Part shown: positions 5,525 through 64,000 of the stretch, in pieces
Numbering within the stretch: the stretch's first letter is position 1
Layout: each line of letters starts with the position of its first letter
DNA from: a virus
Strand: one strand, 5' to 3'
DNA length: 64,000 nt
IMG/VR virus record: IMGVR_UViG_3300027754_000045
Span: 32,001-96,000 of that record
Position numbers and translations under genes: made by a program
Notes under the pieces: model-generated
Databases searched by the model: none
The model's input: only the letters and a program-made list of their open reading frames with translations
What the model was told of the DNA's origin: nothing

Positions 5525-6220
5525 ATGACAATACCTCTACCCTTTTCCGATTCGTTTTCTTTGACACCACCACCATTCAATAGTCGTGTTAGTAATCAAA
5601 TTGATCAAATTAAAAATTATTATGCTGTTGCTTTTAAACCAGGGTATCCTCTTCAAGCATCAGAATTAAACGAAATTCAAGAAATTTTTTATGTACAACA
5701 AACATTAACACAAACTATGATTTCTAATTGGATGTCTACTGGTGTTATTTCAGGGAGTAATATGGTAACTGGGCCAGGTTGGGATGGTTGTACTCCAATA
5801 AATCCGAATTTAATTACATATACTGCTGGTACTAATACTAATACTTTAACTTTTGGTCTTGGTTGGTATTTAATCAAAAAAACTAACGTTAATGGTGGTA
5901 TTGGTGTTTGGGTTTATAATAATAGCATTACAAATATTAGTTCTGTTGTTGCTGGTGATTATGGAATTATTGTTGAACCTATTACGATTAATTGTACATC
6001 TATAAATCCAGAACCATCTAATACAGATTCATCTCTACAGGATCAAATTGGGATTAATGTTATTAATGGTCCTTGTGGTGCGGCACGTTTAAAATTAAAT
6101 GTTCATGCATTTAGTAATATAAATACAGTGACTACAAGATATCTATGCCCCATTTTAACTGTTACTGCTGCGACTGGAGTAAACACGTTAACTTACAAAA
6201 ATAACTACAAAATAACATGA
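5525..6220 (+). CDS. Virion structural protein, DUF4815/VrlC-like N-terminal domain (short form)
   Basis: YYAVAFKPGYPLQASELNEIQ motif. Confidence 0.65.
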   Translation: MTIPLPFSDSFSLTPPPFNSRVSNQIDQIKNYYAVAFKPGYPLQASELNEIQEIFYVQQTLTQTMISNWMSTGVISGSNMVTGPGWDGCTPINPNLITYTAGTNTNTLTFGLGWYLIKKTNVNGGIGVWVYNNSITNISSVVAGDYGIIVEPITINCTSINPEPSNTDSSLQDQIGINVINGPCGAARLKLNVHAFSNINTVTTRYLCPILTVTAATGVNTLTYKNNYKIT

Positions 6221-8637
6221 CAACAACACCAAATATAGCAGACAGCAGTACGTTTAAAACGTGGTTTGAAACCACTAATAGTATAATTGATGTTATTAAT
6301 GGTATTAGCTTATATAATGCCTTTGCTGGGGATGGTATAAAGATAACTTCTACTAATAATAATTTTACGTTTAGTCATTCTAATGCTGTTACTACGGGAA
6401 TTACATTTAGTGGATCTGTTTTGTTTAATGGTAGTGTGGATCTTGGATCTCAGGCAACAATTGGTGCACTTACTATTAGTGTGACTCCTAAAATTGCTGG
6501 AGTAACATCGGGAAATATTGTTATTATTAGTCCAACATTGGGTCTTACTTTAGCAAAAGCAGACAATGCTGTTAACGCTGAAGTTTTTGGAATAGTATCA
6601 AATCAAACAAGCACTAGTACTGTAGTTACTGTTGGTGGTAATATAAACAATACGTTATTCAGTAAAACTATTGGAAATTGTTTAGGAATTAGTGGTGCAA
6701 CTCTTATTCCAGGACAAGCGTATTTTTTAAGTCCAACAATAAGCGGAGGAATTACTACATTTGAACCAAATACTTATGGTTCTATTTCTAAACCTATTTT
6801 GTTGGGTATTACTGGTAATTCTGGATTAATATTACAACATCGTGGTATTCTTTTAGAAGGCATAAGTGCTGGCATCACTGCAGAACTAGACAATAAAATT
6901 ATTATCGAGATTAGCGGTATTACTAGTTCAAATATTGTGGATTTTGGGGGGATTACGTGTGATTATGATGCATCCAGACCAGTTAAAATAGGAGATCCCG
7001 TTATTTATTTTACCGACACTAGCAATCCTGATTTTAGTGATTACTCAATGAACCCAGCCGTACAGTTTATTAGAAAGAAATTTAGAGGTAAATTAAATAA
7101 TTCTACAAATTTAAATGTATATGTTCCGAAAAATGCACCAACAAGTGATAGTGAATATCTAGAGCAATTTACAAGTAATCATGTTTTAGGTTTAATATCT
7201 AAAATTCTTTCAGAAACAGTAGACGGTTCTGGAGTCATGACTAAAATTTTTGAAGTTACTACTATTGGTGGTGCATTTAATGTGAATATTAGTGATTTAG
7301 ATCCTTTACTTTATACAAATACTACAATTACTTCTCCTTTAGTTTATAAATCAATTAATGATGGTGGAGCGAATTTTGGACTCACCATAGCCACAGCCAC
7401 ACAGCAAGGAAAATTTTGTGATTATATAAAAACAGATGCTAATACTGCAAAAATAATTTTTTCCAGGGCACAAGCGTACAGTACTTCCAATCCTTTATTT
7501 ACCAACAGTTCTGGTGGTCTTACCTCAGGAACTGAATACGATAATTTGATTCCTAATGGTGCATTTAGTATTTGGCAAAGGCATGTTACTGGATTGACGC
7601 AGGGTTCATTAAATACATACTCAACTCCGTTTGCGGATAGATGGTTTATTGTTAAGAACGGCGTAACTGGTCTAACAGCAAGCATTACCAGACAGACATT
7701 TGATTCATATCAAACCGATGTTCCAGGATCACCGCTATATTTTGTGGATTGTAATTTTCAATATACTTCGGTTTCTGATTTAAAAAACAGACCAAAATTA
7801 GAAAATATTCAAAAAGAAGCTCGATTTCTTCAGGGACAAAACGCAACATTAAGTTTTTGGGGATTTGCTTCTGGCATAACTGGTTGTACTCTAGACCTTG
7901 TTTATAATCGTTATAAAGATCAATATACTACAACACTAGGCGTTACCACGGATTTAATGGCTCGTGAGTTGATTAACACAGAAACCGTATTAATTTCTCC
8001 TGGTGTATGGCAAGAATACAAATATACCTTTAGTGTCGGACCATGGAACACAATGACTACTGCAGAAAATGGTTGGTTTAGTATTGGGTTTGAGTTTCCA
8101 AGTTGTGTATCAACAATTAGTTTGGCTCAAGTTCAATTAGATTATGCAGGTAGCGAAGGACCAGTATTCTATGTTAGTCAAGATAAAGAACTTGAACGAT
8201 GTAAACCTTATTACCAACGATCTTATGATTTAGGTCAAACTGCAGGTTATAATTATTCTGAAAATAATTCAACAAAAAATGAATACACGATTCAGACAGG
8301 AAATCTTACTACTCAGAGTGTTTATTTTGTTAAATTTCCTTCCATGATGGTTGGTGTTCCGCAAGTGGCAATATACACACCAAACGGAATTCTTGGAGAT
8401 GCGTTTAATATTAATGCAAAAAGAAATATGGTAGATGTCAGTACTGGAGAACTTGTACTATATCCTTGGAGTGCTACTCAATTTTACAGGACTAGTAGCT
8501 CAAGTCAATACGGAAATATTACTACGGGAAATGTTAGTAAAAACGGAACAGAAATTGTTATAATGAATGGTGCTCTTTCCTTGGATGCTTTACAATTCCA
8601 CTACATAGCAGATTCGGATTTAAATTTAAATGTATAA
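6217..8637 (+). CDS. Tail fibre/baseplate appendage protein
   Basis: N-terminal STF.TW...TN (gp9/gp10-like); C-terminal NLIPNGAF.IWQR...ADRW domain common in phage fibres; G/T/S-rich. Confidence 0.65.
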   Translation: MTTTPNIADSSTFKTWFETTNSIIDVINGISLYNAFAGDGIKITSTNNNFTFSHSNAVTTGITFSGSVLFNGSVDLGSQATIGALTISVTPKIAGVTSGNIVIISPTLGLTLAKADNAVNAEVFGIVSNQTSTSTVVTVGGNINNTLFSKTIGNCLGISGATLIPGQAYFLSPTISGGITTFEPNTYGSISKPILLGITGNSGLILQHRGILLEGISAGITAELDNKIIIEISGITSSNIVDFGGITCDYDASRPVKIGDPVIYFTDTSNPDFSDYSMNPAVQFIRKKFRGKLNNSTNLNVYVPKNAPTSDSEYLEQFTSNHVLGLISKILSETVDGSGVMTKIFEVTTIGGAFNVNISDLDPLLYTNTTITSPLVYKSINDGGANFGLTIATATQQGKFCDYIKTDANTAKIIFSRAQAYSTSNPLFTNSSGGLTSGTEYDNLIPNGAFSIWQRHVTGLTQGSLNTYSTPFADRWFIVKNGVTGLTASITRQTFDSYQTDVPGSPLYFVDCNFQYTSVSDLKNRPKLENIQKEARFLQGQNATLSFWGFASGITGCTLDLVYNRYKDQYTTTLGVTTDLMARELINTETVLISPGVWQEYKYTFSVGPWNTMTTAENGWFSIGFEFPSCVSTISLAQVQLDYAGSEGPVFYVSQDKELERCKPYYQRSYDLGQTAGYNYSENNSTKNEYTIQTGNLTTQSVYFVKFPSMMVGVPQVAIYTPNGILGDAFNINAKRNMVDVSTGELVLYPWSATQFYRTSSSSQYGNITTGNVSKNGTEIVIMNGALSLDALQFHYIADSDLNLNV

Positions 8638-8652: not shown

Positions 8653-9819
8653 ATGGCATCTAATTCGTCTAGTTCGTTAAATACCAGAATATTTGCTCCG
8701 TATGTAATATTATCACAAAACACCTCACGTCTTTTGATAAAAATTAGTACTGGACAAGGTTATAGTATTGTTTCAGGAATTACATTAGGAGACGTTATTA
8801 GATTTGATCCTACTTTTAGTTCTGGTGGTTTAACAGGACAATATGTTAAATCACAAGCAAACACCGACGCAAATGCCGAAGTTCTTGGAGTGGTTGAAAG
8901 TATAGAAAATAATTCGTATACTGTTGTGACTCATGGTTCTATTTTATATCCAAATAACAGATTAGTTGGTCTTTGTGGTGCTAATGGCGGCTTAGATGTT
9001 TTATTTTTAAGTCCAGGAATATCTGGAGGATTAACGGGAACAGCAGAAGTTGGAAGTGTTGCTTCTATAGTAAAACCAGTTATACAAATTGCTCCCCATG
9101 GTTTTTATTATAATGCTGTTGTTGTAAATTATCTTGGTTTTAAGGTTGGTGGTTCAGCTGGAGGTCAGCAGGCGTTACTTGGATCAAACGAAAATGGTAG
9201 AAGTGTAGGAGAAATAATATGGGCATCAGAAGATGCTGTTTTAGAAGAAAATTGGATAAATTTAAGTGAAGATGTTCTTTTAGAAAAAGATAATTATCCA
9301 GAATTGTTTTCTATATACAAAACAGATAATGGTCCTTGGCAAGAACAATTAACTTTTAGTTCTACGCCAAATGTATATCTTCAAAATAAAAATACATATC
9401 AGATTAATGATTCTGGATTTAAAGTAAATTTTGGAACTGTAACAGAAATAAATAATATAGAAAAATCTATTATTATAACTCGAACTACTCCTAATACTAC
9501 AACGGTTTCGTTAGATAAACAATACGTTAATAATGTTGTTAACGGAGCAATAACTGATTTAAATTTTGTTTCTAAGAAAGTTTATAAATTTACTATACCA
9601 GCCGTAAAATCAGATATTAATCCAAAACAAAATGACGTTGTGCTTGTTCCTTATATTAATAGTAGAGCAAAACCGTTTATATTAAATTTTTCAACAAATC
9701 CTGTTTTTGATAATTTAACTATTGGTCAAACTCTTTCTGTGGGCAGTATAACAAATGTGGAAAATAAAATATTGGCAATGCAATATCAAATTGATCAATT
9801 AAATTCTAGGACAACATAA
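8653..9819 (+). CDS. Virion structural/fibre protein
   Basis: Shares an A.A...NAEV.G.V / FLSP.ISGG.T / KP module with the preceding gene; predicted C-terminal coiled coil. Confidence 0.55.
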   Translation: MASNSSSSLNTRIFAPYVILSQNTSRLLIKISTGQGYSIVSGITLGDVIRFDPTFSSGGLTGQYVKSQANTDANAEVLGVVESIENNSYTVVTHGSILYPNNRLVGLCGANGGLDVLFLSPGISGGLTGTAEVGSVASIVKPVIQIAPHGFYYNAVVVNYLGFKVGGSAGGQQALLGSNENGRSVGEIIWASEDAVLEENWINLSEDVLLEKDNYPELFSIYKTDNGPWQEQLTFSSTPNVYLQNKNTYQINDSGFKVNFGTVTEINNIEKSIIITRTTPNTTTVSLDKQYVNNVVNGAITDLNFVSKKVYKFTIPAVKSDINPKQNDVVLVPYINSRAKPFILNFSTNPVFDNLTIGQTLSVGSITNVENKILAMQYQIDQLNSRTT

Positions 9820-9821: not shown

Positions 9822-11168
9822 ATGAGTACTATTGGATCTAGTGTTGTTTCTGAATTATCATCAGAAAATTCTTCTGTTGGTTCTACTGGTCCTACTGGTC
9901 CTACTGGTCCTATTGGACCTATTGGTTCTGGTGCAACTGGTGCAACTGGTAATAGCGTTATTGGAATTAGTCTTGTTGATCGTTATATTATAACTACTTT
10001 TTTTGACGGAACTACTTACGGAACTTCAACACAAGCAATAGGTAAAACTGGGGATGGGCTTGTCAAATTAAATTTTTCTAATATTGGAACAGGTAATAGT
10101 TTAGGATATAATATAACAAATAATAAAACACTTGCTATACGACCAATAGTTTTTTTAGAAAACGAAAATTCAAAGTATAGCATAAACTTAAATTCAGAAA
10201 ATAATGCTTATGATATTAATTTAATAACTAATAGTTCTGGTATAACTTTACTTGCTGGAAGTTCATCAAATAAACTATTAACATTCAATTCTACGGGAAA
10301 ACCGCAAACACTAAACAATACATCTGTAAATGAATATGGTGTTAATTTTGTTTCTGCAAATATTTTTGAGTTTGTTCGTGGTGGTGGCTGGACTGGTTCT
10401 ACTGGAGCAATTAATTGTTTTGGAAGTGTTTCTGGTATTACTTGTATTTTAAATCCATGTGTGCCAGAATATGGTAAAATGTATGGTTCAAAATCTCACG
10501 TATATTATACTAATTTTAGAGGAATGACAGCTTCTATAGGAATAATCAACCCCCCAAACGACAAAAGGGTGTATGGATTTGATTTGTTCGTTCGTAATGC
10601 ATTAAATCCTACAAATATTTCTGAAAGGTTTGGTGACAACATTAAATGGTCTTTGAATAGGGCTCCTTGTTTTAGTTTTGGTGGTACTACTTGTGATTTA
10701 AAACTTTCTTTTTTTGGATTAGGAGGTTCTACTTGTTGGTATGGGTCGGCTGTTGCTATTCCAAATTTGAATAATAAAACTTGTCCTGGTCTTTCTTTGT
10801 TTGACTCTAGTTGCTCTGGAGATTCTAATTTTGTAGAAGCAGGAAGTGCTGTTCCTAAAAATATTAACGACATAGGAGCTTGCTGTAGTGTGGATGGTTT
10901 ATGTGTTGAAACTTACGCATCAGAGTGTTCTGGATTTTTCCATGGAGCAGGAACTACTTGCGGTAATATTAATAATTCTATTTGTAATAAAATAGGTGCT
11001 TGTTGTGTTTATATGCCTTCGTATTCTTGTTATGATTACTTAACTTGCACGGAATGTTTGGCTCTTGGTTATGATTCTTCTATTTCAACATTTTTTGGTG
11101 GAAATTTTAGTAATTGTAAAAATGTTAATTGTCTTGAGATAAGCAATAATTATTTTAATTTTTTATAA
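9822..11168 (+). CDS. Collagen-like (GPT) fibre protein with Cys-rich GACC repeats
   Basis: GSTGPTGPTGPIGPIGSGATGATG at the N-terminus; GACCSVDGLC...C.G.F.G.GTTC and GACCVY repeats at the C-terminus. Confidence 0.65.
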   Translation: MSTIGSSVVSELSSENSSVGSTGPTGPTGPIGPIGSGATGATGNSVIGISLVDRYIITTFFDGTTYGTSTQAIGKTGDGLVKLNFSNIGTGNSLGYNITNNKTLAIRPIVFLENENSKYSINLNSENNAYDINLITNSSGITLLAGSSSNKLLTFNSTGKPQTLNNTSVNEYGVNFVSANIFEFVRGGGWTGSTGAINCFGSVSGITCILNPCVPEYGKMYGSKSHVYYTNFRGMTASIGIINPPNDKRVYGFDLFVRNALNPTNISERFGDNIKWSLNRAPCFSFGGTTCDLKLSFFGLGGSTCWYGSAVAIPNLNNKTCPGLSLFDSSCSGDSNFVEAGSAVPKNINDIGACCSVDGLCVETYASECSGFFHGAGTTCGNINNSICNKIGACCVYMPSYSCYDYLTCTECLALGYDSSISTFFGGNFSNCKNVNCLEISNNYFNFL

Positions 11169-11175: not shown

Positions 11176-13587
11176 ATGAGCAATTTTTATTCTAACAGTA
11201 CATTTAATATTAATTCCTTAGGTTTTGGTTTTGGTGCTACGGGACCAAAAGGACCTACGGGACCAACAGGTCCTACTGGACCTACTGGACCAACAGGCAA
11301 TAGTGGTATAGGATTAAAAAGAATTGATACATGGGTCACTAAAAATAATTCAGATTCAGTTACTATTGTTCTGTCTGACGAAACAAGTATTACTATTAAT
11401 GGTTTGTCTGGAAATTCGTCAGATTTTGATACTAATCTTTTTAATATAATAGGCAGTACTGCAGTTAGGTCATCATCAATAAATATTAATAGTAGTGTTT
11501 CTGGCTCTACTGCTTATTTTACTCCTTTGGCGGGTTTTGGTGAAATATCTCTTAGTAAAATATCAAACGATTTAGTTTTTCACGGAACTACTGCAACATC
11601 TGGTATCACTAATGTTATATTATACTCTAAGGGTAATACTTTAGCAAGTTTAATTGATTCTAGTGGAAATAATACACTATTTAAATATAATATTAATACT
11701 TTTGGTTCTACGACAAATTCTGTTGCAATAGCAAATTTATCTTCGTTTTTATTAAGAACATCTACTACAGGAATAACTAATCATAACGCAACAGCATCTT
11801 TTACTTCTGGAATTACTGGTATAGTTTCTAATTTTACCGATATGTCTGTTTACAACACAACTATTAGTAGTCAGGCTGTTGTGAGTAAACAATTTTATCA
11901 TAGTTCTAATCAAGACGTTAGATCTATTGTTAATTCTGCTGGTGAAGTACAGAACAGCGGAATAACTTCTTTTTTCAATACTATTTTTGCTAATATTTCT
12001 CAAGGAATTTCGTATGGATTTAGAAACTTTGGATCTTGTTTTTATAAAGGATGCAAGTGTTTAGACTACGCAACAAAAGAATATTGTGACACAATTGGCG
12101 GAACATTTTCCTCTTCTTCTCTATGTAGAGATATTGTGGGTAGTAGTCCTAATTCAACTGGTTCTTGTTGCCGAGGAATAACTTGCGTTAATACAACAGA
12201 AGCACAATGTGGTTTTGTTGGTGGTCACTGGGGTGGAAATAATACAAATTGTGCTGGAGCTTTTTGTGGAGGAGAGTTTACTCATATTGCAGCTGGATAT
12301 GATCATGCTGCTGTGGTTTATAAAAGTCCTAGTAATATAAATTATTTAATTGGCTGGGGACGAAATCTTGATGGTCAATGTAAAGGAACAACTTCCACTA
12401 ACGGAATCATTGTTAGTGAATCTGAAACAGCAATTCAACCACACGTAATAAAATTAAAGGGTCAATTTTTATCTAATATTAAAGGGGAAAGTTTGATATG
12501 CAGCGATTCGAAGACTGCGGTTATTAGTAATGATGGCAACATTATTATGATTGGAGGAAATACCGAATTAAGCCAGGCAAAGCTGAATCCAAACACAACA
12601 TTTGGTAGATCAATATATGGTACGTTAAATAGCAGTGGAACTCCTAATCTAGATCCTGGTTGCGTTAAAATACACGGAATTACAATAACAAATCCTACAC
12701 AAATTTCAATGTGGCACACAACTCATGCATTAATGCCTGATAAAACAGTTCGTACTTGGTGTGATCAAGGATATCAAGATGGTGCTTATAATGCAAGCAC
12801 TATGTTTGGTGTTAGTGGTAGAGGAGGAGGGCCTAATGGATTAACTGGATTTACTGCAGATTATGTTTATGCTGGACCATATGCAACATATTTTGCTCAC
12901 CAAAATGGAATGACGCATACTACGGTTTTTAACGAAACACCAGCGCAGTGCGATGGAAACCGCTTTGCCGTTGCTGGAGATAGATTGCAAACAAAAACTT
13001 GTGCAGGAGATGTTGCTGCTCCAGCATTTTATTATAATAGCGTTAATAATTTTCCTGGTTTATCTTTCGGGATACCTCTAGAATATTTTGGTAATAGTAA
13101 TGACTTGAAAGGAGTATTCAGAGTAAAACAATTTGTTGCTTCACGATCACAAATAGTTTGGTTGTCTTATGATCCTAGTGGTTCAACGAATTGGACTTAC
13201 ATCCAGAATCACCAAAATAAACCAGGAATGAAAGGACATTGTGGAGATGGGCGTGATGAGTCAGACAACGGAATAACATATGATGGAGATATTGCTTTTA
13301 CAAAATTAGCATCAGGAGCTTATCACATAATTGCCTTAAAGAATGACGGAAATATAATAGTATATGGAGAAAATGATTTGGGGGAATCTACTATTTCAGA
13401 TGAAGCGGACGAGGCTTCTAGAATTCGTGGAGTAAAATTTATAGATGTGGCTGCTACAGCTCATAATACATTTGTTCTTGGAGAAGACAGCATAATATAT
13501 GCTTGGGGTGATCCATTAACAAATTTAATTCAGAATGTGCCAAAAATAGAAGATATTCCAGCAATATTTAACAGAAGTCTATCATGA
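11176..13587 (+). CDS. Collagen-like fibre protein with Cys-rich repeats and RCC1/BLIP-II-like beta-propeller
   Basis: GPT repeats; GSCC...C..VGG.WGG.NT.C; IAAGYDH..GWGRNLDGQ, LASGAYHIIALK.DG.I..YG.N..G and IDVAA..H..VL..D..IYAWG. Confidence 0.65.
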   Translation: MSNFYSNSTFNINSLGFGFGATGPKGPTGPTGPTGPTGPTGNSGIGLKRIDTWVTKNNSDSVTIVLSDETSITINGLSGNSSDFDTNLFNIIGSTAVRSSSININSSVSGSTAYFTPLAGFGEISLSKISNDLVFHGTTATSGITNVILYSKGNTLASLIDSSGNNTLFKYNINTFGSTTNSVAIANLSSFLLRTSTTGITNHNATASFTSGITGIVSNFTDMSVYNTTISSQAVVSKQFYHSSNQDVRSIVNSAGEVQNSGITSFFNTIFANISQGISYGFRNFGSCFYKGCKCLDYATKEYCDTIGGTFSSSSLCRDIVGSSPNSTGSCCRGITCVNTTEAQCGFVGGHWGGNNTNCAGAFCGGEFTHIAAGYDHAAVVYKSPSNINYLIGWGRNLDGQCKGTTSTNGIIVSESETAIQPHVIKLKGQFLSNIKGESLICSDSKTAVISNDGNIIMIGGNTELSQAKLNPNTTFGRSIYGTLNSSGTPNLDPGCVKIHGITITNPTQISMWHTTHALMPDKTVRTWCDQGYQDGAYNASTMFGVSGRGGGPNGLTGFTADYVYAGPYATYFAHQNGMTHTTVFNETPAQCDGNRFAVAGDRLQTKTCAGDVAAPAFYYNSVNNFPGLSFGIPLEYFGNSNDLKGVFRVKQFVASRSQIVWLSYDPSGSTNWTYIQNHQNKPGMKGHCGDGRDESDNGITYDGDIAFTKLASGAYHIIALKNDGNIIVYGENDLGESTISDEADEASRIRGVKFIDVAATAHNTFVLGEDSIIYAWGDPLTNLIQNVPKIEDIPAIFNRSLS

Positions 13588-42382: not shown

Positions 42383-42384
42383 TT

Positions 42385-46644: not shown

Positions 46645-46645
46645 T

Positions 46646-49941: not shown

Positions 49942-50494
49942 TAAACACTGGAATTCTCCAATAGAAGGAGGACCAGGAACGGACAAAAATACAGGACATA
50001 GTTATATTTCTGGATTTTATGAAGAAGCATTTTTTCCTTATAAAACTAAACATATCTCTATTCTTGAAATAGGAATAGCAAGAGGTGATTCATTATTATT
50101 ATGGAATGAATATTTCAAAAATAGTAAATTAATTTATGGTTTAGATAACCACAATCAATTATCATCAGAAGTTAAATCACATTCAAATTTAAATATAATA
50201 TTCAATAATGCATACACAGAACAAATTGCAAACACACTTCCAACATTTGATATTGTAATTGACGATGGTCCACATAGTTTAGATTCTCAATGTATTGCTA
50301 TCTCTTTATATCTTCCAAAAGTAAATCCTGGTGGTATTTTTATAATTGAAGATGTTCAATCTGAAAGTTATATTGAAACATTTAAAAACTTAGTTCCAGA
50401 AAAATATAGAAAATATTGTGAATTTATTGATCTTCGTAAGATTAAAAATAGAGTAGATGATATGATGTTTGTTGTAAGAATTCCTGAGGAATAA
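49913..50494 (+). CDS. Class I SAM-dependent sugar O-methyltransferase-like
   Basis: GTDK...HSY...Y, ILEIGI..G.S..LW..YF, DIVIDDG.H, GG.FIIEDV. Confidence 0.8.
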   Translation: MKLQEILINNKHWNSPIEGGPGTDKNTGHSYISGFYEEAFFPYKTKHISILEIGIARGDSLLLWNEYFKNSKLIYGLDNHNQLSSEVKSHSNLNIIFNNAYTEQIANTLPTFDIVIDDGPHSLDSQCIAISLYLPKVNPGGIFIIEDVQSESYIETFKNLVPEKYRKYCEFIDLRKIKNRVDDMMFVVRIPEE

Positions 50495-50495
50495 A

Positions 50496-51299: not shown

Positions 51300-51300
51300 A

Positions 51301-51328
51301 TTGACATTTATATTATATCGTGTATAAT
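51301..51328 (+). promoter_or_regulatory. Consensus sigma70 promoter upstream of the GME-like gene
   Basis: TTGACA-16 nt-TATAAT, intergenic. Confidence 0.8.
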
Positions 51329-51354
51329 ATTAAAACAGAAAGAAGATTTATGTT

Positions 51355-53348: not shown

Positions 53349-53351
53349 ACC

Positions 53352-55982: not shown

Positions 55983-57227
55983 ATGCCTAAATTATGCCTA
56001 TCGATGATTGTTAAAAATGAAACTCACATTATCAAAGAATGCCTGGATTCAATCTACAAGTATGTGGATTACTGGGTCATTGTGGATACTGGTTCCACAG
56101 ACGGAACTCAAGAGTTAATTAAAAACTTCTTTGCCGAGAAGGGTATTCCTGGAGAACTTCATGAACGCCCATGGGTAGGATTCGGTGATAACCGCACAGA
56201 GGCTCTACAACTCTGCGACGGCAAGGCAGACTGGGCATGGATGATTGATGCCGACGACTATGTGGAAGGAGAGTTTCAGTTTCCGTTTAATGTGGGAGAA
56301 GTTGAAGCATTTGCTCTTGCGTTTGGTCGTGGCGAGTTCAGTTGGTGGAGAACTCAGATTTTCCGCACAGGTATTGGCTGGAGATACGAAGGCATTCTTC
56401 ACGAGTACCCAACAAAGCCAAATGTGGAAACTACTCCTCCAAAGATTGCAAAGCTGGAAGGAAAATATAAAATTGTTGCTCGCACCGTTGGAGCACGTAA
56501 TGTAGGCATTGATCCTATCGAGAAGTATAAACGGGATGCCATCATGTTGGAAGAAGTTCTGGTTAAGGAACCAAACAATGTAAGATACCAGTTCTATCTG
56601 GCTCAAAGCTATTTTGACTCTCAGCAATGGGAAAAGGCAGAAGCCGCCTACAAGAAGCGTGTAGAGATGGGTGGCTGGGAAGAAGAGCAATACTATTCAG
56701 CTTTTCGTATCGCCATGTGCCGTGGTCTTGCCAACAAGCCTTGGATCGAAATTCAGCAAGGATTCCTAGAATCCTGGGAACTTCGACCACACCGAGCAGA
56801 GCCTCTTCATCAGATTGCACGAGTCTACCGAATGATGGGTCATCCACGACTAGCCTTCTTATACGCAAAGATGGCTCTTGATATTCCGTATCCAAAGGAT
56901 GATATCTTGTTCGTCTCCGAAGATGTCTACAAGCATGCTGTTCTAGACGAAATTGCTTCCACTGCTTTCTATGCAGGAAAGCCTCATATGGGATACTCTG
57001 CCTGCAAGAAACTATTACTGGAAAACCTGCTTCCTCCAGATCAGGTTGAGCGTGTGCAAACCAATCTGAGTCAATACTTAAAGTTCTTTGAACAAAGTAA
57101 TCAAATGGAGATTATCAAGCAGTTAGATGAACAAGCCTCAAAACAAGCCGAAAAACGAGACCATAAACCTGCCCTATTTCCAGCACAAAAAAAGAACTTT
57201 AAAACTAGAAAACCAGTACATCGATAA
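55983..57227 (+). CDS. GT2 glycosyltransferase with C-terminal TPR repeats
   Basis: L.MIVKNE...I.ECLDS, VDTGSTDGT, F...R..AL, IDADD, W.Y.G.LHE, then TPR-like RY.FYLAQSY.D and P.RAEP. Confidence 0.9.
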   Translation: MPKLCLSMIVKNETHIIKECLDSIYKYVDYWVIVDTGSTDGTQELIKNFFAEKGIPGELHERPWVGFGDNRTEALQLCDGKADWAWMIDADDYVEGEFQFPFNVGEVEAFALAFGRGEFSWWRTQIFRTGIGWRYEGILHEYPTKPNVETTPPKIAKLEGKYKIVARTVGARNVGIDPIEKYKRDAIMLEEVLVKEPNNVRYQFYLAQSYFDSQQWEKAEAAYKKRVEMGGWEEEQYYSAFRIAMCRGLANKPWIEIQQGFLESWELRPHRAEPLHQIARVYRMMGHPRLAFLYAKMALDIPYPKDDILFVSEDVYKHAVLDEIASTAFYAGKPHMGYSACKKLLLENLLPPDQVERVQTNLSQYLKFFEQSNQMEIIKQLDEQASKQAEKRDHKPALFPAQKKNFKTRKPVHR

Positions 57228-57242: not shown

Positions 57243-57653
57243 ATGACCGCAAAATACGACTTAACAATCAATAAAGGTTCTAATTTTGAGTTTTGGCTTC
57301 AGTATCAAAGAGAAGACAACACTCCAGTCGATTTAAGTGCGTATACTGCCGCACTGGTAGTTAAACGATTTAAAGGACAAGAATATCCTATTTTGTCTAT
57401 GAATAATTCTGGCTTGACTTATGGGTATAGTTCTGGAAATACTCTTGGTCTTTCTGGTTCGGGCAATATAAGTCTTAATACAGATTATGACGGAACAGGA
57501 ATTACTGGAGGAATTTCTGTAAATATCACAGCAAACACAACAAAAAAACTAACTTCAGGAAGTCATTTTTATGATTTAAATTTGATGATAGGAATTACGT
57601 ATTCTCAAAAACTTCTTGAAGGAAAGATTTTCATACAAGACGGATCACGTTAA
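57243..57653 (+). CDS. Small virion structural protein (BppU-N/Ig-like)
   Basis: YDL.I.KGS.F, P.DL..Y, I...I.A..T..L..G...YDL, LLEG.I; CTAAATA late-promoter-like site just upstream. Confidence 0.6.
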   Translation: MTAKYDLTINKGSNFEFWLQYQREDNTPVDLSAYTAALVVKRFKGQEYPILSMNNSGLTYGYSSGNTLGLSGSGNISLNTDYDGTGITGGISVNITANTTKKLTSGSHFYDLNLMIGITYSQKLLEGKIFIQDGSR

Positions 57654-60600
57654 TGAAACTCAAAATTCGTGAACTTTTAAATAAGGTTTTGTTTTTTAAT
57701 AAACCTCAGGAAAATATAACTAAACTTAAAATAATTGAGCAAGTTAAGTTTAATACTGTTTCAGTCAATACTGATTTTTTTGCTAATGATTTTTTTAATT
57801 TTCTTCCTACAATAACAAGTATTGCTCCAACTTCTGGTTTAGTAGCTGGAGGAACGTCATTTACTATAACAGGTACTAATCTTACTGGTACTTCTAGCGT
57901 AACTGTTGGCGGTGTTGCAGCAACCAGCGTTGCTGTTGTTTCTGGGACTTCTGTTACGGCTGTTACTCCAGCAGGAACAGCAGGCGTAAAGAGTGTTGTT
58001 CTTACTACTCCTGGAGGAACAGCCACTGCATCAAGTGCATTTACCTATATTGGCGTACCTACAATAACAACAATAAATCCTAGTACTGGTGTATTAGCTG
58101 GAGGAACACCATTTACTATAGGAGGAACTAATTTATTAAATACTTCTAGTGTAACTGTTGGCGGTGTTGCGGCAACCAGCGTTACTATTGTTTCTAGTAC
58201 TTCTGTTACCGCTGTTACTCCAGTAGGAACAGCAGGCGTAAAGAATATTGTTCTTACTACTCCAGGAGGAACAGTAACATTCTCAAGTGCTTTTGAATAC
58301 ACAGATATTGCTGTATTCCCTACAATAACAATTATTGCTCCAATTTCTGGAGTATTAGCAGGAGGAACAACCTTTGGCATAACAGGAACTAATTTATCAG
58401 ATACTTCTAGCGTAACTATTGGTGGTGTTACCGCTACTAGCCTTACTAATGTTTCTAGTGTTTTTGTTACTGCACGTACTCCAGCAGGAGCAACAATAGG
58501 CTTAAAGAATATTGCTTTAACAACTCCTATAGGAACAGCAATATCAGCAAATGCATTCACGTATATTGGCCTACCTACAATAACAAGTATTGCTCCAACT
58601 TCTGGTGTATTAGCAGGAGGAACAACCTTTGGTATAACAGGAACTAATTTATCAAATACTTCTAGCGTAACTGTTGGTGGTGTTACGGCTACTAGTCTTA
58701 CTAATGTTTCTGATACTTCTGTTACTGCACGTACTCCAGCAGGAGTAACAACAGGATTAAAGAATATCACTTTAATAACTCCAGGAGGAACAACTACTGC
58801 ACCAAATGCATTTACGTATATTGGCCTACCTACAATAACAGAAATTACTCCAAATTCTGGTCCAGTAAGCACCGAAACAACTGTAAATATAGATGGCACT
58901 AATTTATCAGGTACTTCTAGTGTAACTGTTGGCGGTGTTGCGGCAACTAATTTAAATATATTTAGCCCATTTAGCGTAGGGTGTGATTTTCCAGTAGGAA
59001 CAATAGGTGCAAAGAATGTTGTTCTTACTACTCCAGGAGGAATAACTACTGCACTAAATGCATTCACGTATATTGGCGTACCTACAATAACAAGTATTTC
59101 TCCTACTTCTGGTGTAGTAGCAGGAGGAACAACTATTACTATAACAGGTACTAATTTATCAGATACTACTATCGTAACTATTGATGGTGTTGAGGTAACT
59201 AGCTTTACTAATGTTTCTAGTACTTCTGTCACGGTTGTTACTCCAGCAGGAGCAACAATAGGCGCAAAAAATATTGTTCTTACTAATTTCGGAGGAACAG
59301 TTACTGCACCAAACGTATTTACGTATATTGGGCTACCTACAATAACAAGTATTGCTCCAGCTTCTGGCGTATTAGCAGGAGGAACGACTTTAGGAATAAC
59401 AGGAACTAATTTATCAGGTACTTCTAGCGTAACTGTTGGTGGTGTTACGGCTACTAGTCTTACTAATGTTTCTAGTGTTTTTGTTACTGCACGTACTCCA
59501 ACAGGAGCAATAATAGGAGTAAAGAATATTGTTCTTACTACTCCAGGAGGAATAACTACTGCACTAAACGCATTTACCTATATTGGCGTACCTACAATAA
59601 CAACAATAAATCCTAATACTGGTATATTAGCTGGAGGAACATCATTTACTATAGCAGGAACTAATTTATCAAATACTTCTAGCGTAACTGTTGGCGGTGT
59701 TGCGGCAACGAACGTTACTACTCTTTCTGGGACTTCTGTTACTGCAGTTACTCCAGCAGGATCAGCAGGCCTAAAGAATATTGTTCTTACTAATCCAGGA
59801 GGAACAGTTACTGCATCAAATGCTTTTGAATACACAGATATTACTATAATACCTACAATAACAAGTATTTCTCCAACTTCTGGCGTATTAGCAGGAGGAA
59901 CAACTTTAGGCATAACAGGAACTAATTTATCAAATACTACTAGCGTAAAGGTTGATGGTGTTACCGCTACTAGTCTTACTAATGTTTCTAGTGTTTTTGT
60001 TACTGCAGTAACTCCAGCAGGAGCAACAATAGGCCTAAAGAATATTACTCTAAATACTACTCTTGGAGGAGTAACATCAGTAAATGCATTTACTTATATT
60101 GGCCTACCTACAATAACAAGTATTGCTCCAATTTCTGGCGTATTAACAGGAGGAACAACCTTTGGCATAACAGGAACTAATTTATCAGATACTTCTAGCG
60201 TAACTGTTGGTGGTGTTACTGCTACTAGCCTTACTAATGTTTCTAGTGTTTTTGTTACTGCAGTAACTCCAGCAGGAGCAACAACAGGCGCAAAGAATAT
60301 TGTTCTTACTACTCCAGGAGGAATAACTACTGCACTAAACGCATTTACTTATACGGATTTTAATCTTGATTTTGCAAGAATACAAGTATTAGCAGATACT
60401 CGTATAAGTGATTTGTGGGTATTAGATACTACAAAAGCAAAACCTGTTGGTGTTGTTGCTGGGAAGTTTTATGCTCAAAGTGGCATTGATCGTTCTCAAG
60501 GAGGTTACACATCTGCTCCTAATGGAAGATTGACAAAATGGGCACAACCATTATTTTATACTCCCAGATCTATGGCAGATGTTATTAAAGGAACAACTGC

Positions 60601-63600
60601 AATTTCTGGCTTATGTGCAAGCCTAACTTATAATAAATTTGGCATTTTAAAAAATTTAAATTATTTTTATGGTGGACAGACCTCTGGTAGTGAAGGATCG
60701 GTTAATATGTCACGCCTATTGAGACTCAAAGAAGGAATAACTGGAGGAAAAAATGTAATCAAAAGACCGTATTCTTTTAATGATATTAAAACTTTTGGTT
60801 TAAGTGCAGGTCATACACTTTTTGGTAATATTAATAGTGATAAAACAGTAACTGCTGTAGCAATAGCATACAATAATCCAAACTCTTGGTCTCTAAAAAG
60901 AAATATGTTACTAAGTAGTTTAAGTCAAATTGATGAATGGCAATCTTATAGAGTTTTAAATTATTTAACACCTCTTGCTATTTCCTGGAGATTTCAAAAA
61001 GAAATCAGACAAAATAGTATAGGATTTTCAAATAATGTTTCACAAATATCTGAATCAGAACTTAACGCAGTAAATACAGATACTCTAAATCATCTTAAAA
61101 TATTATTAGACGAATATAAAGACCATTATCCGCTAGCAAGACCGAATAACGGAGTGAATAATACTCTAGGTAGTAACCAAACTTGGCGTGGAGAGGCAAC
61201 TAGTGGCTATCCTATGGGTCTGTGTGGTTCTTTTGGTGTTCGAACATCTCCATATCCGTTAGGAGCAACTCTTGATTTTATTCCTGCACTAGGAGTAAAC
61301 GGAACAACCTTAGATACTTGGTCTCCTCAAGGATGGACAGCAGATACAGGAATGTATTTATTTGACGGTTGGGGTATGAGATATATTTTAGAAAATATGA
61401 TATATTTGGACGGAGTAACATCAGTAATAGAACCAGTTACAACAACAACTCAACTTAAAGCAGATTCTTCGTGGAATAATATTCTTATAGAAGTAAAAAA
61501 ATTAATGCTTAAAGAAATTTTTGATTATGTGATACACACAGAAGAAGGAAGAGCCTGGTATGCTAAAAGAAAGTATTGGCCAGACGGTTCAGAGCGAGAC
61601 TCACTGATTTATGCAGACTCAAACCCAAATCGAATATGGACAGAACAAGCAACTGGTTTAACAGGAATTAAGTATTATTATAATCATTATTTTAATGGAA
61701 CTGGTTATTGGTATCCAGAACCAGATAATAAAGGATATGTAGGAACCAATCAAAATATTACTCCTATGGCATATCGTATGTTAGCCACAATGTATTTGTA
61801 TCCTTATATGACACTAGACAAAGAAAGAACTGCTCTTTTATCTGCGTATAATATGATGGCAGAAGAATGTGCTTCGGTGTTAGAACGATTTTTAATGGGA
61901 GTTACTTCTTCTCAAGAAAATAGTGCTGGATATTGGACGGAAGGTTGGGGATATGCTGCACAATCTATGCCAGATTTTTTGAAAATATTAACCTCTATGA
62001 AAACTATGGGAGACAGGAGACTATGGGACAAAAAGTCAACTCCAGACTATTTCAATAAAACAATACCAGGAATTTCTTATAGTTCTTGGACAAACAATAC
62101 TTGGAAATGGATCGTTAGTAGAATAATGCCAAATAATTTAATTATTAATTCTGGATCATGCAATAGTTCTGGATGGGAAACTATAGGCAACTCTTATCAA
62201 TTTACACCGTGGGGAGTGTATTTAACTGCTGTGAATGCAAGCGAAAGTCCTACTCCAGGAACCACGGGATCTGCAATTAGCGAACTTCATGATTGGTTTG
62301 ATAATAACGCAGGATACGAAGAAGAAATTGAATATTTTTACAATGTTAGAAAATATCAAGAACGTAATACATATAACGAAAAAATTAACACTCCTTGGTT
62401 TTACTCTCCAGGGGACTGTATAGTTACTTGGAAGTCGGAACACGTAATACCAAAATTTCAAAGTGATTGGACTTACGGAAATAATACAGAAAGACCTGAT
62501 GGTAAACCAGGATACGTTGTTAATAATTTTAATAAACCTTTAATTTTTGGTCTTTGGGCTAAGGGCGTAGGAGTTAGTGACGAAAAAACTAATGTTGATT
62601 GCGGTCACATTTCTGCTTATTTGGGCGACGCTGCATTACTAATAGAGACTGGTGAACCTAGACAGTTACTGGAATTTGATAATGATAAAACAAATAACTA
62701 TTTTTACGAAAGAGAAACTTTCAGGGTAAAAGGACATAATGTTATGCAATTGGGAGAAAGACTTGATTACAAGAATCCCAAATATGCTCCTTGGACTGGA
62801 GTAACATTTACCGCAACTGGTGGTAGTGCATTTTTAAATGCAACTTCAAATTATAATGTTAGACCATTAAAAATAAGTACTCCTCAACCATTGGGTGATA
62901 ATCGACCTAATCCAAAAGATGGAGGTTTTCCAACATGGGCAGAAAGTGATCCTGCCTGGGATAATGTATCTGACGGATTTTTATATCTTGCAGGAACAAC
63001 ACAAATAGCGAATACACGAGGAGGAGATACTGCACAATATTTGGCTCAATCCAGTAATATTCTTGGTGGATCAGAAACTATAGACGGAAGAGCTGGTCAA
63101 TACGTATTTGAGCCGTATCAATACCAAATAAAAACCTGCACAAGAGGTATTACCTGGGAATATTCTGCTGGTGTTGCAAAAATTAGAATTCAGGATATTG
63201 TGGGAATAAGTGCATTCAACAACAATCCATCGTTCTGGTCAGCAACTGGTCCGTATGCAACAGGACCAGACACAAGAGTATATTATCGTTTTCATACTGG
63301 ATATACTGGAGCAAACGATATAGCAGGAAATCCAAGTTCAACTAGTTGGCCATTCTTTACCACCACAGACGCAGGATTAACTTTCTTTTCAGTTTCTGGC
63401 ACAAACAACAAGACTTGGCAAGCAGCGTGGACACAACCAATACCGTATAATACAATGGCATATGATGGTGTTGTGAGCAGATTAGATTCTGTTGGTGTCA
63501 CAATGACCTTTGTTGGAAGTCAGCCAATTAAATTAACAAAAGAATTATCAGTAAATCATTCTTTTAAATATTCTTCAGTAACTAAACCAGGAATAGGAAT

Positions 63601-64000
63601 TACTGCTCCTAGTCGCCATTACGCAATTAATATTTTGTTAGGACTATCTGGTGGAGCGTTTCACGACGAGAAAAACCTTACTCTTAATACCACTATTGAT
63701 GCGGCAGTTAAAAAGAGAGATAACTTTACTATATTATTTCAAGAGGACGTTACAGTACAACAAGAAAATAAATTTAATGCACTAGGAGCAAAGAAATATT
63801 ACATAAACTCTAGAGGACTTTCTGCAGGTAGTTGGAATTTATCCCAATCAAACATAGATGCAGCTGTTGCATATTTAAAAGGAGATCTTAATGAACAAGG
63901 AAGTATGGTATTTGGTAGAGGCATAACTGCAACCAGTAAATCTTTTATATTTTTAGATTTTGAATCAACGTATGATCCTATGACTAAATCAGGAGGACCT
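57653..64000 (+). CDS. Giant protein (>=2116 aa, runs off the window): 10 IPT/TIG repeats + heparinase II/III-like domain + possible further glycosidase domain
   Basis: ATG overlaps the upstream TAA (TAATG). Repeat starts all fall in one frame, and 60301-64000 was translated by hand with no stop. Motifs: PTITSI.P.SG..AGGT...ITGTNL...V.VGG...VTA.TP.G...TPGG...AFTY, GYWTEGWGY, D.GH...LIETG, GHNV. Confidence 0.9.
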   Translation, partial: MKLKIRELLNKVLFFNKPQENITKLKIIEQVKFNTVSVNTDFFANDFFNFLPTITSIAPTSGLVAGGTSFTITGTNLTGTSSVTVGGVAATSVAVVSGTSVTAVTPAGTAGVKSVVLTTPGGTATASSAFTYIGVPTITTINPSTGVLAGGTPFTIGGTNLLNTSSVTVGGVAATSVTIVSSTSVTAVTPVGTAGVKNIVLTTPGGTVTFSSAFEYTDIAVFPTITIIAPISGVLAGGTTFGITGTNLSDTSSVTIGGVTATSLTNVSSVFVTARTPAGATIGLKNIALTTPIGTAISANAFTYIGLPTITSIAPTSGVLAGGTTFGITGTNLSNTSSVTVGGVTATSLTNVSDTSVTARTPAGVTTGLKNITLITPGGTTTAPNAFTYIGLPTITEITPNSGPVSTETTVNIDGTNLSGTSSVTVGGVAATNLNIFSPFSVGCDFPVGTIGAKNVVLTTPGGITTALNAFTYIGVPTITSISPTSGVVAGGTTITITGTNLSDTTIVTIDGVEVTSFTNVSSTSVTVVTPAGATIGAKNIVLTNFGGTVTAPNVFTYIGLPTITSIAPASGVLAGGTTLGITGTNLSGTSSVTVGGVTATSLTNVSSVFVTARTPTGAIIGVKNIVLTTPGGITTALNAFTYIGVPTITTINPNTGILAGGTSFTIAGTNLSNTSSVTVGGVAATNVTTLSGTSVTAVTPAGSAGLKNIVLTNPGGTVTASNAFEYTDITIIPTITSISPTSGVLAGGTTLGITGTNLSNTTSVKVDGVTATSLTNVSSVFVTAVTPAGATIGLKNITLNTTLGGVTSVNAFTYIGLPTITSIAPISGVLTGGTTFGITGTNLSDTSSVTVGGVTATSLTNVSSVFVTAVTPAGATTGAKNIVLTTPGGITTALNAFTYTDFNLDFARIQVLADTRISDLWVLDTTKAKPVGVVAGKFYAQSGIDRSQGGYTSAPNGRLTKWAQPLFYTPRSMADVIKGTTAISGLCASLTYNKFGILKNLNYFYGGQTSGSEGSVNMSRLLRLKEGITGGKNVIKRPYSFNDIKTFGLSAGHTLFGNINSDKTVTAVAIAYNNPNSWSLKRNMLLSSLSQIDEWQSYRVLNYLTPLAISWRFQKEIRQNSIGFSNNVSQISESELNAVNTDTLNHLKILLDEYKDHYPLARPNNGVNNTLGSNQTWRGEATSGYPMGLCGSFGVRTSPYPLGATLDFIPALGVNGTTLDTWSPQGWTADTGMYLFDGWGMRYILENMIYLDGVTSVIEPVTTTTQLKADSSWNNILIEVKKLMLKEIFDYVIHTEEGRAWYAKRKYWPDGSERDSLIYADSNPNRIWTEQATGLTGIKYYYNHYFNGTGYWYPEPDNKGYVGTNQNITPMAYRMLATMYLYPYMTLDKERTALLSAYNMMAEECASVLERFLMGVTSSQENSAGYWTEGWGYAAQSMPDFLKILTSMKTMGDRRLWDKKSTPDYFNKTIPGISYSSWTNNTWKWIVSRIMPNNLIINSGSCNSSGWETIGNSYQFTPWGVYLTAVNASESPTPGTTGSAISELHDWFDNNAGYEEEIEYFYNVRKYQERNTYNEKINTPWFYSPGDCIVTWKSEHVIPKFQSDWTYGNNTERPDGKPGYVVNNFNKPLIFGLWAKGVGVSDEKTNVDCGHISAYLGDAALLIETGEPRQLLEFDNDKTNNYFYERETFRVKGHNVMQLGERLDYKNPKYAPWTGVTFTATGGSAFLNATSNYNVRPLKISTPQPLGDNRPNPKDGGFPTWAESDPAWDNVSDGFLYLAGTTQIANTRGGDTAQYLAQSSNILGGSETIDGRAGQYVFEPYQYQIKTCTRGITWEYSAGVAKIRIQDIVGISAFNNNPSFWSATGPYATGPDTRVYYRFHTGYTGANDIAGNPSSTSWPFFTTTDAGLTFFSVSGTNNKTWQAAWTQPIPYNTMAYDGVVSRLDSVGVTMTFVGSQPIKLTKELSVNHSFKYSSVTKPGIGITAPSRHYAINILLGLSGGAFHDEKNLTLNTTIDAAVKKRDNFTILFQEDVTVQQENKFNALGAKKYYINSRGLSAGSWNLSQSNIDAAVAYLKGDLNEQGSMVFGRGITATSKSFIFLDFESTYDPMTKSGGP
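57806..60352 (+). repeat. Ten tandem ~252-261-bp repeats encoding IPT/TIG Ig-like domains
   Basis: Unit starts (cctacaataac) at 57806, 58058, 58319, 58574, 58829, 59081, 59336, 59591, 59852, 60107. Confidence 0.92.

Follow-up and report, generated by a model that had tools for sequence, protein, structure and literature searches.

In Clostridioides difficile, the soluble, metal-dependent enzyme SgtA, which joins a GT-A domain to four tetratricopeptide repeats (TPRs), is encoded just upstream of bclA3, and in vitro it transfers beta-O-linked N-acetylglucosamine (GlcNAc) onto Thr, and also Ser, of peptides such as TGATGLIGPTGATGA and GATGIGITGATG (PMC7157674). These acceptor peptides have the form G-x-T-G, including GATG, GPTG and GITG (PMC7157674), so that a G-x-T-G acceptor is experimentally established for the GT-A plus TPR architecture. 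Here we examine a gene of similar architecture, encoding a family 2 glycosyltransferase with TPR-like helices (GT2-TPR), together with a Gly-hydrophobic-Thr motif in fibre-like proteins of the same phage. The DNA analysed, hereafter the window, is a 64-kb stretch comprising bases 32001-96000 of the 153,850-bp, 85%-complete IMG/VR record IMGVR_UViG_3300027754_000045. We propose that motif and enzyme form a candidate sequon-directed fibre glycosylation system, a reading to which we assign a probability of roughly 0.55 from the sequence evidence.

Phages already offer two points of reference. Mycobacteriophage-encoded glycosyltransferases modify the phages' own virion proteins, with glycans on C-terminal extensions of capsid and tail-tube subunits, as Freeman et al. 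2023 is cited in PMC12619734. In pelagimyophages and cyanomyophages, sugar genes adjoin tail-fibre genes in a hypervariable region; these genes have been read as modifiers of the host O-chain or cell wall, or of DNA, and no acceptor motif was reported (PMC7029224, PMC12801897).

The motif and the proteins that carry it

Throughout, φ denotes A, V, I or L, the motif G-φ-T denotes G-[AVIL]-T, and expected counts were computed from each protein's own composition. A sequence-only reading of the window had proposed G-x-T as an acceptor sequon after noticing 16 copies in an 806-aa fibre, many in the open reading frames (ORFs) at 8653-14960, and more in the protein at 57243 and in a giant ORF. The count of 16 is exact, and the other proteins likewise exceed expectation, as given in brackets below.

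6217..8637, + strand: 806-aa fibre-like protein, no family match, highest motif load (16 G-φ-T against 2.30 expected)
8653..9819, + strand: 388-aa fibre-module protein (3 against 0.81)
9822..11168, + strand: 448-aa protein, collagen-like over a short stretch at the N-terminus and Cys-rich towards the C-terminus (4 against 1.10; also 2 G-φ-S and 3 G-φ-C)
11176..13587, + strand: 803-aa tail-fibre protein (PHROG tail fibre) with a collagen-like GPTGPTG N-terminus and RCC1-like C-terminal repeats (RCC1_2 match 7e-12; 9 against 2.27)
13584..14960, + strand: 458-aa fibre-module protein, distantly paralogous to the 803-aa fibre (6 against 1.28)
57243..57653, + strand: 136-aa beta-sandwich protein directly 3' of the GT2-TPR gene, T5/DT57C tail-tip collar-like (p132/LtfC-like; 3 against 0.39)
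57653..64000 and on to window coordinate 65194, + strand: giant fibre-like ORF, 2513 aa in the full record (30 against 9.3 in the window; 33 against 10.3 over the full 2513 aa)

The 806-aa fibre, for which 500 shuffles give a z of 9.1 and which carries a further 3 G-φ-S, has no close relatives in IMG/VR, and phage isolates gave weak C-terminal matches only. Its residues 93-195 are paralogous to residues 40-144 of the 388-aa protein (35% identity over 114 aa), and three motif sites align between the two (GVT/GIT, GLT/GLT and GGIT/GGLT). The giant ORF contains about ten TIG/IPT domains (TIG 1.4e-107, 10 stretches), in which G-φ-T occurs up to four times per domain; more sites follow in its C-terminal part, which is not repetitive. 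Cys-rich stretches (GACC, GLCV) occur in proteins near the 803-aa fibre, and G-φ-C sites cluster at 9822-11168 and at 11176-13587 (C-terminal residues 700-780), where the 803-aa fibre is RCC1-like.

Because about 19 of the giant ORF's sites sit in duplicated TIG/IPT repeats, these repeats were excluded from the specificity test. Internal duplication is rejected as the source of the excess: the repeats inflate the giant-ORF count, but the result stands without them. In the 4592 aa of fibre-like protein that remain, G-φ-T occurs 55 times against 11.4 expected (p 1.6e-20) and is the most enriched of 400 a-φ-b patterns. After G-φ, the third position is enriched for T (4.8x), C (3.5x) and S (1.9x), with every other residue at or below 1.4x. 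Before φ-T the enrichment is for Gly alone, and Gly is also enriched immediately after the motif Thr, at the fourth position. The remainder of the genome (37,000 aa) holds 31 G-φ-T against 36.8 expected.

A composition artefact is rejected by whole-protein shuffles, by shuffles inside 10-, 20- and 40-aa windows, in which the excess keeps a z of 10-12, and by a comparison of the six orderings of the same residue classes, among which GφT occurs 94 times and the rest 17-43 times; the excess survives correction at the whole-protein and the local scale alike. Codon usage under the motif Gly and Thr equals the background, with no dominant 9-mer, so that G-φ-T is a feature of the peptide and a DNA-level motif can be set aside. 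Collagen-like repeats were likewise dismissed as a source in this phage. In the G/T-rich proteins such runs total 90 aa, 92 of the 94 sites lie outside them, and masking the collagen-like G-x-y runs alters little, leaving 92 copies against 28.2 (3.3x). The N-x-S/T sequon shows no enrichment, at 0.9-1.2x throughout. The 15 motif-enriched proteins of the genome share just three weak pairwise similarities and are mostly non-homologous, spanning TIG/IPT domains, RCC1-bearing fibres, a small beta-sandwich and orphans.

The sequence-only reading had extended the motif to gp14, gp15, gp18 and gp23. The tetrapeptides quoted are present in these proteins, but their counts (1, 1, 2 and 3) are not above chance (z 0.7-1.8). 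The gp19 tail tube has 0 copies, and the gp23 capsid protein, with 3 against 1.0 expected, is no different from its counterparts in control phages. With the core virion proteins at chance, the motif belongs to fibre and baseplate-periphery proteins and not to the whole virion. The zero copies reported for eight replication proteins are correct but carry little weight, because only 1.3 copies are expected there in total.

Two further structural genes deserve mention. The gp18 tail-sheath ORF (21471-22610) is 379 aa long, against 635-750 aa in relatives and controls, and matches the C-terminal part of sheath profiles only. Between the gp21 protease and the gp22 scaffold lies an 800-aa orphan (26249-28651) with no family match, 9.1% Gly and 8.0% Thr, and zero G-φ-T against 1.28 expected; it may belong to the head interior, and would then serve as an internal negative control for the motif.

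Distribution across T4-like phages

For comparison between phages, whole genomes were used and proteins were picked blind to the motif, by a length of at least 300 aa, Gly of at least 8% and Thr of at least 8%. The clade set consists of five genomes, all with GT2-TPR and with 36-50% GC. The control set consists of six T4-like phages without a GT2-TPR homologue, namely T4, four cyanomyoviruses and one pelagimyophage. The G-φ-T counts are as follows.

Clade, own genome: 94 observed, 29.2 expected, p 1e-21
Clade, G001: 104 observed, 32.2 expected, p 9e-24
Clade, G002: 81 observed, 25.1 expected, p 8e-19
Clade, G003: 91 observed, 29.5 expected, p 1e-19
Clade, G004: 92 observed, 36.5 expected, p 1e-14
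Control, T4: 5 observed, 7.1 expected
Control, S-BM3: 55 observed, 50.2 expected
Control, P-SSM7: 66 observed, 56.2 expected
Control, S-CREM1: 51 observed, 36.9 expected
Control, P-SSM4: 59 observed, 60.4 expected
Control, Mosig: 29 observed, 22.5 expected

G-φ-T is the rank-1 pattern in all five clade genomes (2.5-3.2x), whereas in the six controls it reaches 0.7-1.4x at ranks 10-163. The co-occurrence of motif and gene that the sequence-only reading had anticipated is therefore seen, with the motif in 5/5 clade genomes that have the gene and no excess in 6/6 T4-like phages that lack it. For the two other nucleophilic residues, G-φ-C and G-φ-S number 33 against 9.4 and 217 against 127 in the pooled clade, and 12 against 8.0 and 173 against 183 in the pooled controls. 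Since the excess is present in the clade and absent from the controls, it is not general to beta-rich, G/T-rich fibres but goes with the clade.

At the 460 sites of the five genomes, the middle residue is enriched for I (4.0x), V (3.0x), L (2.9x) and A (2.3x). The residue after Thr is almost never charged (K 0.0x, E 0.1x, D 0.2x) and seldom Pro (0.2x), and is instead enriched for F (2.7x) and for A and G (1.9x each). At both positions the controls are flat. The same motif is abundant in a wider sample, with 550 G-φ-T against 133 in 46 non-redundant G/T-rich ORFs from 80 GT2-TPR-bearing IMG/VR loci. In the cyanomyovirus fibres of S-BM3, P-SSM7 and S-CREM1 the top a-φ-b pattern is T-φ-T (p 3e-6 to 3e-10) and not G-φ-T; T4-like lineages seem to differ in their favoured short strand patterns.

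The nearest isolates are cyanomyoviruses and one Pelagibacter myophage. Portal identity to them is only about 51%, and psbA (PF00124) is absent from all five long clade genomes (G000-G004), one of which is complete with terminal repeats. These two observations point to an uncultured sister lineage of the isolates, and the clade is probably not cyanophage, though its nearest isolates are. A search for relatives via gp6 returned only 9 short contigs. Among gp23 relatives, GT2-TPR was found in 7 of the 12 long contigs, and the remaining five are fragments, 20-47% complete; no in-clade phage without the gene is established among these 12. Because the gene is missing only from these fragments, it appears to be a core gene of the clade.

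The glycosyltransferase and its gene neighbourhood

All genes of the window lie on the + strand, in a layout that PHROG and Pfam scans identify as T4-like. In order, they are as follows.

48-5516, + strand: baseplate genes gp53, gp25, gp6, gp7 and gp8
5525-16813, + strand: block of fibre-like ORFs without annotation
After the fibre-like block, + strand: gp13 to gp20
After gp13-gp20, + strand: gp21, the 800-aa orphan, gp22 and gp23
After gp23, + strand: gp3, UvsY, UvsW, gp55, gp47, gp46, RNase H, gp45, gp44, gp62 and RegA
42247-57227, + strand, after RegA: 15-kb sugar island ending in the GT2-TPR gene
55983..57227, + strand: GT2-TPR, 414 aa, candidate protein O-/S-glycosyltransferase, with a GT2 (GT-A) domain, TPR-like helices and a disordered basic C-terminal tail
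After GT2-TPR, + strand: the 136-aa ORF, then the giant TIG/IPT ORF

The GT2-TPR gene and the sugar island named in the sequence-only reading are thus both present. The protein matches Pfam Glycos_transf_2 (1.2e-12) as well as TPR models, and its DTGSTD, FGxNR, DADD (residues 89-92) and LHEY motifs are invariant in 24 homologues. Its best sequence match in the PDB is GmaR (4.7e-9), followed by ThuS (6e-8) and SunS, and its top NCBIfam model is the SunS family (TIGR04195). An AlphaFold 2 model built from the 24 homologues has a mean confidence (pLDDT) of 87.7 and places helices at 178-390; in a Foldseek search it matches ThuS and SunS over its full length (E 1e-14, about 398 columns, TM 0.57), with TarS as the next family (3e-7). 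In sequence and in predicted fold, GT2-TPR is closest to protein and peptide glycosyltransferases. A hydropathy scan predicts no membrane segment in it. Relatives in IMG/VR number 126, at 54-97% identity, and in the disordered basic tail (57150-57227, residues 393-414) the final residues FKxRKxxxR are conserved across the clade.

Upstream of the gene lies a match to the core of T4-type late promoters, which recurs in the window.

55880..55887, + strand: T4-type late-promoter core TATAAATA, 96 nt upstream of the GT2-TPR start
764, 3597, 6118, 11164, 21410, 23186, 28672, 31157, 41920, 49443, 49671 and 55880, + strand: copies of TATAAATA

The total of 12 copies equals the chance expectation, though 12/12 lie on the coding + strand and 0 on the - strand, and most stand directly upstream of late genes, consistent with T4-type late promoters. 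Of 67 relatives, about 30 have NATAAATA at -21 to -31 relative to the start of GT2-TPR. The late-promoter motif upstream of GT2-TPR suggests that the enzyme is expressed late, together with the virion genes.

Directly downstream stands the 136-aa protein, a homologue of which directly follows GT2-TPR in 54/80 loci, always with 2-5 motif copies against about 0.5 expected. Its model (pLDDT 87.5) matches 8hqz_T (4.5e-6) and 7qg9_L (1e-5), with a weak Pfam LtfC match, and the T5 and DT57C tail-tip collar proteins to which it is likened are of about 140 aa. On this likeness, the 136-aa protein is a predicted virion fibre-docking protein. Within its family, conservation reaches at least 90% at G57 and at T59, and further sites lie in a Gly/Thr-rich loop that varies. 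ORFs further downstream in relatives are also motif-loaded, for example an 810-aa protein in one locus (L018) with 45 copies against 5.3.

The enzymes of the island (42247..55967, + strand) are listed by start position.

42999, + strand: GT10-like
43822, + strand: DUF6165
44948 and 49213, + strand: DUF5672
45601, + strand: short-chain dehydrogenase/reductase (SDR) dehydratase/epimerase
46646, + strand: LegC/PseC-type aminotransferase fragment
47272, + strand: NeuD/PglD-type acetyltransferase
49895, + strand: methyltransferase
50496, + strand: GT17-like
51355, + strand: GDP-fucose-synthase-like SDR
53352, + strand: fusion of an SDR with an NDP-sugar C-methyltransferase

The succession of dehydratase, aminotransferase and NeuD/PglD acetyltransferase follows the order typical of di-N-acetyl-trideoxyhexose pathways. 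At 209 aa, the LegC/PseC/DegT-type aminotransferase ORF (46646-47275) falls short of the roughly 360-390 aa usual in its family, and its match is mostly to profile positions 24-94. The enzyme may thus be incomplete or without activity, in which case the trio would be broken. A hydropathy scan of the ORFs in 42247-57227 finds no membrane segments other than the Rossmann N-terminus of 45601, and a flippase, polymerase, ligase or priming polyprenyl-phosphate transferase has no Pfam match in the island.

One clade genome, G003, separates the enzyme from the island. There GT2-TPR stands directly after gp62, with no island and a lone epimerase gene 17 kb off, and the motif is still enriched 3.1x, so that an adjacent island is not required for the motif. 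Any role of the island in building a glycan coat would be, at most, accessory elaboration. G003 has a weak homologue of the 136-aa protein at a distance of 12 kb. A subgroup of loci (L054-L056, L060-L063, L068, L073-L075 and L080-L081) has the order gp44, gp62, a 144-aa ORF, GT2-TPR, a 165-aa ORF with 0 motif copies, and gp43; it too has no sugar island, and no adjacent 136-aa homologue.

Proposed fibre glycosylation, its rivals and known systems

We propose that the acceptor would be G-[I/V/L/A] followed by T, then C, then S in order of preference, and usually by a small or hydrophobic residue, almost never a charged one. GT2-TPR, expressed late, would move the first sugar from a nucleotide sugar to the hydroxyl of the motif Thr or Ser, or to the thiol of the motif Cys, its TPR-like domain holding the protein substrate. 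This would take place in the cytoplasm, ahead of virion assembly or in the course of it, and the substrates would be freshly synthesised proteins of the tail fibres and the baseplate periphery as well as fibre-docking proteins. The variable island, with its soluble nucleotide-sugar enzymes and further transferases, may supply unusual sugars and extend the glycan, in a manner that differs from phage to phage. The sequences themselves show the motif and its specificity, its confinement to enzyme-bearing phages, the likeness of the enzyme to protein glycosyltransferases and the order of the genes; action of GT2-TPR on the motif, the choice of sugar and a part for the island in the same pathway are inferred. 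The outcome would be host-recognition fibres bearing dozens of glycans. Glycosylation accounts for most of the evidence, namely the hydroxyl/thiol specificity, the restriction to enzyme-bearing phages, an enzyme akin to protein glycosyltransferases, its place among the genes, the late promoter and the lack of membrane machinery. Wherever the sequence-only reading's own grounds for giving up the idea (no excess after correction for Gly and Thr content, a motif kept by relatives without the gene) could be run, the results came out in its favour, and the idea of G-x-T as the acceptor of GT2-TPR is partly supported: enrichment, co-occurrence, enzyme kinship and the SgtA precedent speak for it, and the core status of the gene and the unenriched core virion proteins do not.

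The enzyme family also meets G-x-T proteins elsewhere. In the jumbo phage Tunturi_5, about 3.7 kb and five small ORFs separate a 37%-identical homologue from the gene for a collagen-like GxT tail fibre on the opposite strand; the fibre holds 38 G-φ-T copies, in collagen-like GATGATGPTG runs. The closest bacterial homologues (41-47% identity) are from Mycobacterium and other Actinomycetota, and a G-x-T-rich ORF lies within 8 kb in 7 of 67 bacterial loci, as a direct neighbour in four of these seven:

L249:5909-7786, L262:5402-7936 and L290:4827-7487, same strand as the homologue: PE_PGRS-like, with GATGATG or GPTG collagen-like tails
L254:2681-7021, divergent: Gly-rich secreted protein with a collagen-like GPTGPTG run

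These neighbours could represent an undescribed glycosylated class of such Gly-rich proteins. Together, the Tunturi_5 and Actinomycetota cases support a link between enzyme family and G-x-T, all of the collagen type, with the dispersed, non-collagen motif particular to the T4-like clade. In huge phages whose homologues are 30% identical, the 20 kb on each side of the gene show no enrichment, which is uninformative.

Several points weigh against fibre glycosylation. The case rests on statistics and homology. With GT2-TPR core to the clade, the association of enzyme and motif is essentially one phylogenetic contrast, with which any other clade-specific trait would correlate equally. The enzyme scores 42.4 bits against an equivalog cut-off of 350 for TIGR04195, and is thus a relative of SunS but not an equivalog. 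Motif counts in gp14, gp15, gp18 and gp23 are the same as in orthologues from phages without the enzyme, and the island, as G003 attests, is dispensable for the motif. Most bacterial homologue loci, 60 of 67, have no G-x-T-rich neighbour within 8 kb, and in Tunturi_5 the collagen-like runs account for all of the signal, which is 1.04x outside them. Finally, Gly-hydrophobic-Thr followed by a hydrophobic or small residue also describes an exposed Thr at the start of a beta-strand, and 3 of the 5 sites in the 136-aa model, the one model whose secondary structure was used to judge surface exposure, begin a strand.

This last point is the core of the strongest rival, a clade-specific structural motif in which a turn Gly, a buried hydrophobic residue, an exposed Thr and a buried residue mark the start of a beta-strand. 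Such a motif would have been inherited and spread in fibres, and GT2-TPR would be unrelated to it or would have one or a few substrates, such as the 136-aa protein or the short collagen-like segments. The pattern G-φ-T-[F/A/G/L], with no charged residue after Thr, fits the in/out alternation of a strand, and in the 136-aa model G57 and G86 open strands while G117 stands just before one. The conservation of sites between paralogous segments and of G57/T59 in the 136-aa family, the single phylogenetic contrast, and the T-φ-T pattern that cyanomyovirus fibres favour for themselves all speak for it. So does the beta propensity of the residues concerned, which is much alike in Thr and Cys and lower in Ser. 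On the other hand, the motif crosses non-homologous folds, from TIG/IPT domains and the p132-like sandwich to RCC1-bearing fibres and orphans, and the fibres of six other T4-like phages, equally beta-rich and G/T-rich, show no excess. Nor are K, R, E, Q and N, which are common at exposed strand positions, enriched after G-φ, and a strand motif does not account for the same enzyme family standing beside G-x-T proteins in unrelated lineages. On balance we consider a purely structural origin unlikely, though it is the alternative we take most seriously.

Less probable again, at what we would call long odds, is that the island and GT2-TPR remodel the host surface (the O-chain of lipopolysaccharide, LPS, or capsule) during infection, with the fibre motif unconnected. 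Such phage genes have been read in this way (PMC7029224, PMC12801897), and the island does encode LPS-type enzymes, including SDR dehydratases, the aminotransferase, the NeuD/PglD acetyltransferase and the GT10-like and GT17-like proteins. However, the island has no flippase, polymerase, ligase, polyprenyl-phosphate transferase or membrane protein, and the enzymes that GT2-TPR most resembles have proteins and peptides, rather than lipids, as acceptors. The late-promoter motif and the gene's place at the head of a block of virion-protein genes fit virion assembly, and a host-surface role leaves both the motif and its co-occurrence with the enzyme unexplained. Modification of DNA in the T4 manner was rejected: the ThyA/dCMP-hydroxymethylase family (PF00303) is absent from the 153.8-kb record (85% complete), and the nearest relatives of GT2-TPR are protein transferases. 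Some other clade-specific reader of the motif, by phosphorylation, acylation, ester or thioether cross-links of Thr, Ser or Cys, or as a fibre-assembly chaperone, is the least probable of the rivals. The hydroxyl/thiol specificity fits any nucleophile-directed chemistry, but no kinase, protein acyltransferase or cross-linking domain is found among the annotated window genes, and G-x-T-G specificity has been demonstrated experimentally, with SgtA, for the GT2-TPR family.

Fibre glycosylation might extend further than this phage. We advance, more tentatively than the system itself, that throughout a whole uncultured aquatic T4-like clade a single conserved GT2-TPR, late and SunS/SgtA-like, puts dozens of O- and S-glycans on every host-recognition fibre at the sequon G-[IVLA]-[T/S/C]-[small or hydrophobic], with hypervariable islands of soluble sugar enzymes diversifying the glycan between phages. 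If so, phages of Gram-negative or aquatic hosts would here have their first case of protein glycosylation that is both sequon-directed and fibre-wide, and the glycans would add a second, glycan-based layer of variation to host recognition or shielding. Fibre sequence alone would then not predict host range in the clade, structure prediction and metaproteomics of fibres would have to allow for modified G-φ-T peptides, and the enzyme with a short tag could be used for site-directed glycosylation in the cytoplasm. Where a glycosyltransferase gene adjoins fibre genes in a marine or freshwater T4-like phage, the routine annotation is that of a modifier of host LPS or DNA; a sharp motif and one conserved enzyme make this vague annotation testable, by specifying which residues, which proteins and which gene, and the motif test is applicable to any phage genome with a GT2-TPR gene.

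Among known systems, SgtA-BclA3 offers the closest parallel. Here too a GT-A plus TPR enzyme is encoded beside a motif-bearing gene, a likeness of architecture. G-x-T-G would be the corresponding acceptor in the phage, where the motif is enriched and Gly stands at 2-3x after Thr. The sites of BclA3 lie in long collagen-like G-x-y repeats of one protein, whereas in the phage ten or more non-homologous fibre proteins share the sites, more than 95% of them away from any collagen-like run; Cys is also enriched in the phage motif. SunS and ThuS (PDB 7MSN, 7MSP and 7MSK; TIGR04195), with a GT-A domain and a helical, TPR-like substrate-binding domain, provide the best full-length fold match, and their nucleophiles are Cys, Ser and Thr, as at the third position of the phage motif. 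Unlike these enzymes, whose substrate is a 30-40-aa peptide, GT2-TPR would presumably act on large structural proteins, and beside it there is no glycocin precursor peptide, bacteriocin transporter or immunity gene, but sugar enzymes upstream and virion proteins downstream.

GmaR, the flagellin beta-O-GlcNAc transferase of Listeria monocytogenes (PDB 22AO), shares the DTGSTD, ARN and DAD motifs over the GT2 core, and its cytoplasmic glycosylation of Ser/Thr on a surface filament protein resembles what is proposed here. GmaR is also the anti-repressor of MogR, a function for which no counterpart would be expected here, and we know of no G-φ-T consensus at the flagellin sites that it glycosylates. 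Pelagimyophage and cyanomyophage clusters are alike in belonging to aquatic T4-like phages and in having sugar genes beside fibre genes; unlike the phage studied here, the six T4-like isolates compared have neither GT2-TPR nor an excess of the motif. To our knowledge, phage virion glycosylation has been demonstrated only in mycobacteriophages, on the tails of capsid and tube proteins. Unlike in those phages, capsid and tube are not enriched here, and the predicted targets are the fibres. A literature search returned no paper on a sequon or on fibre glycosylation in T4-like aquatic phages. Known already, then, are O-glycosylation at G-x-T by a GT2-TPR enzyme, in a bacterium, and glycosylation of the virion, in mycobacteriophages; what we predict here is such a system on the fibres of a T4-like phage.

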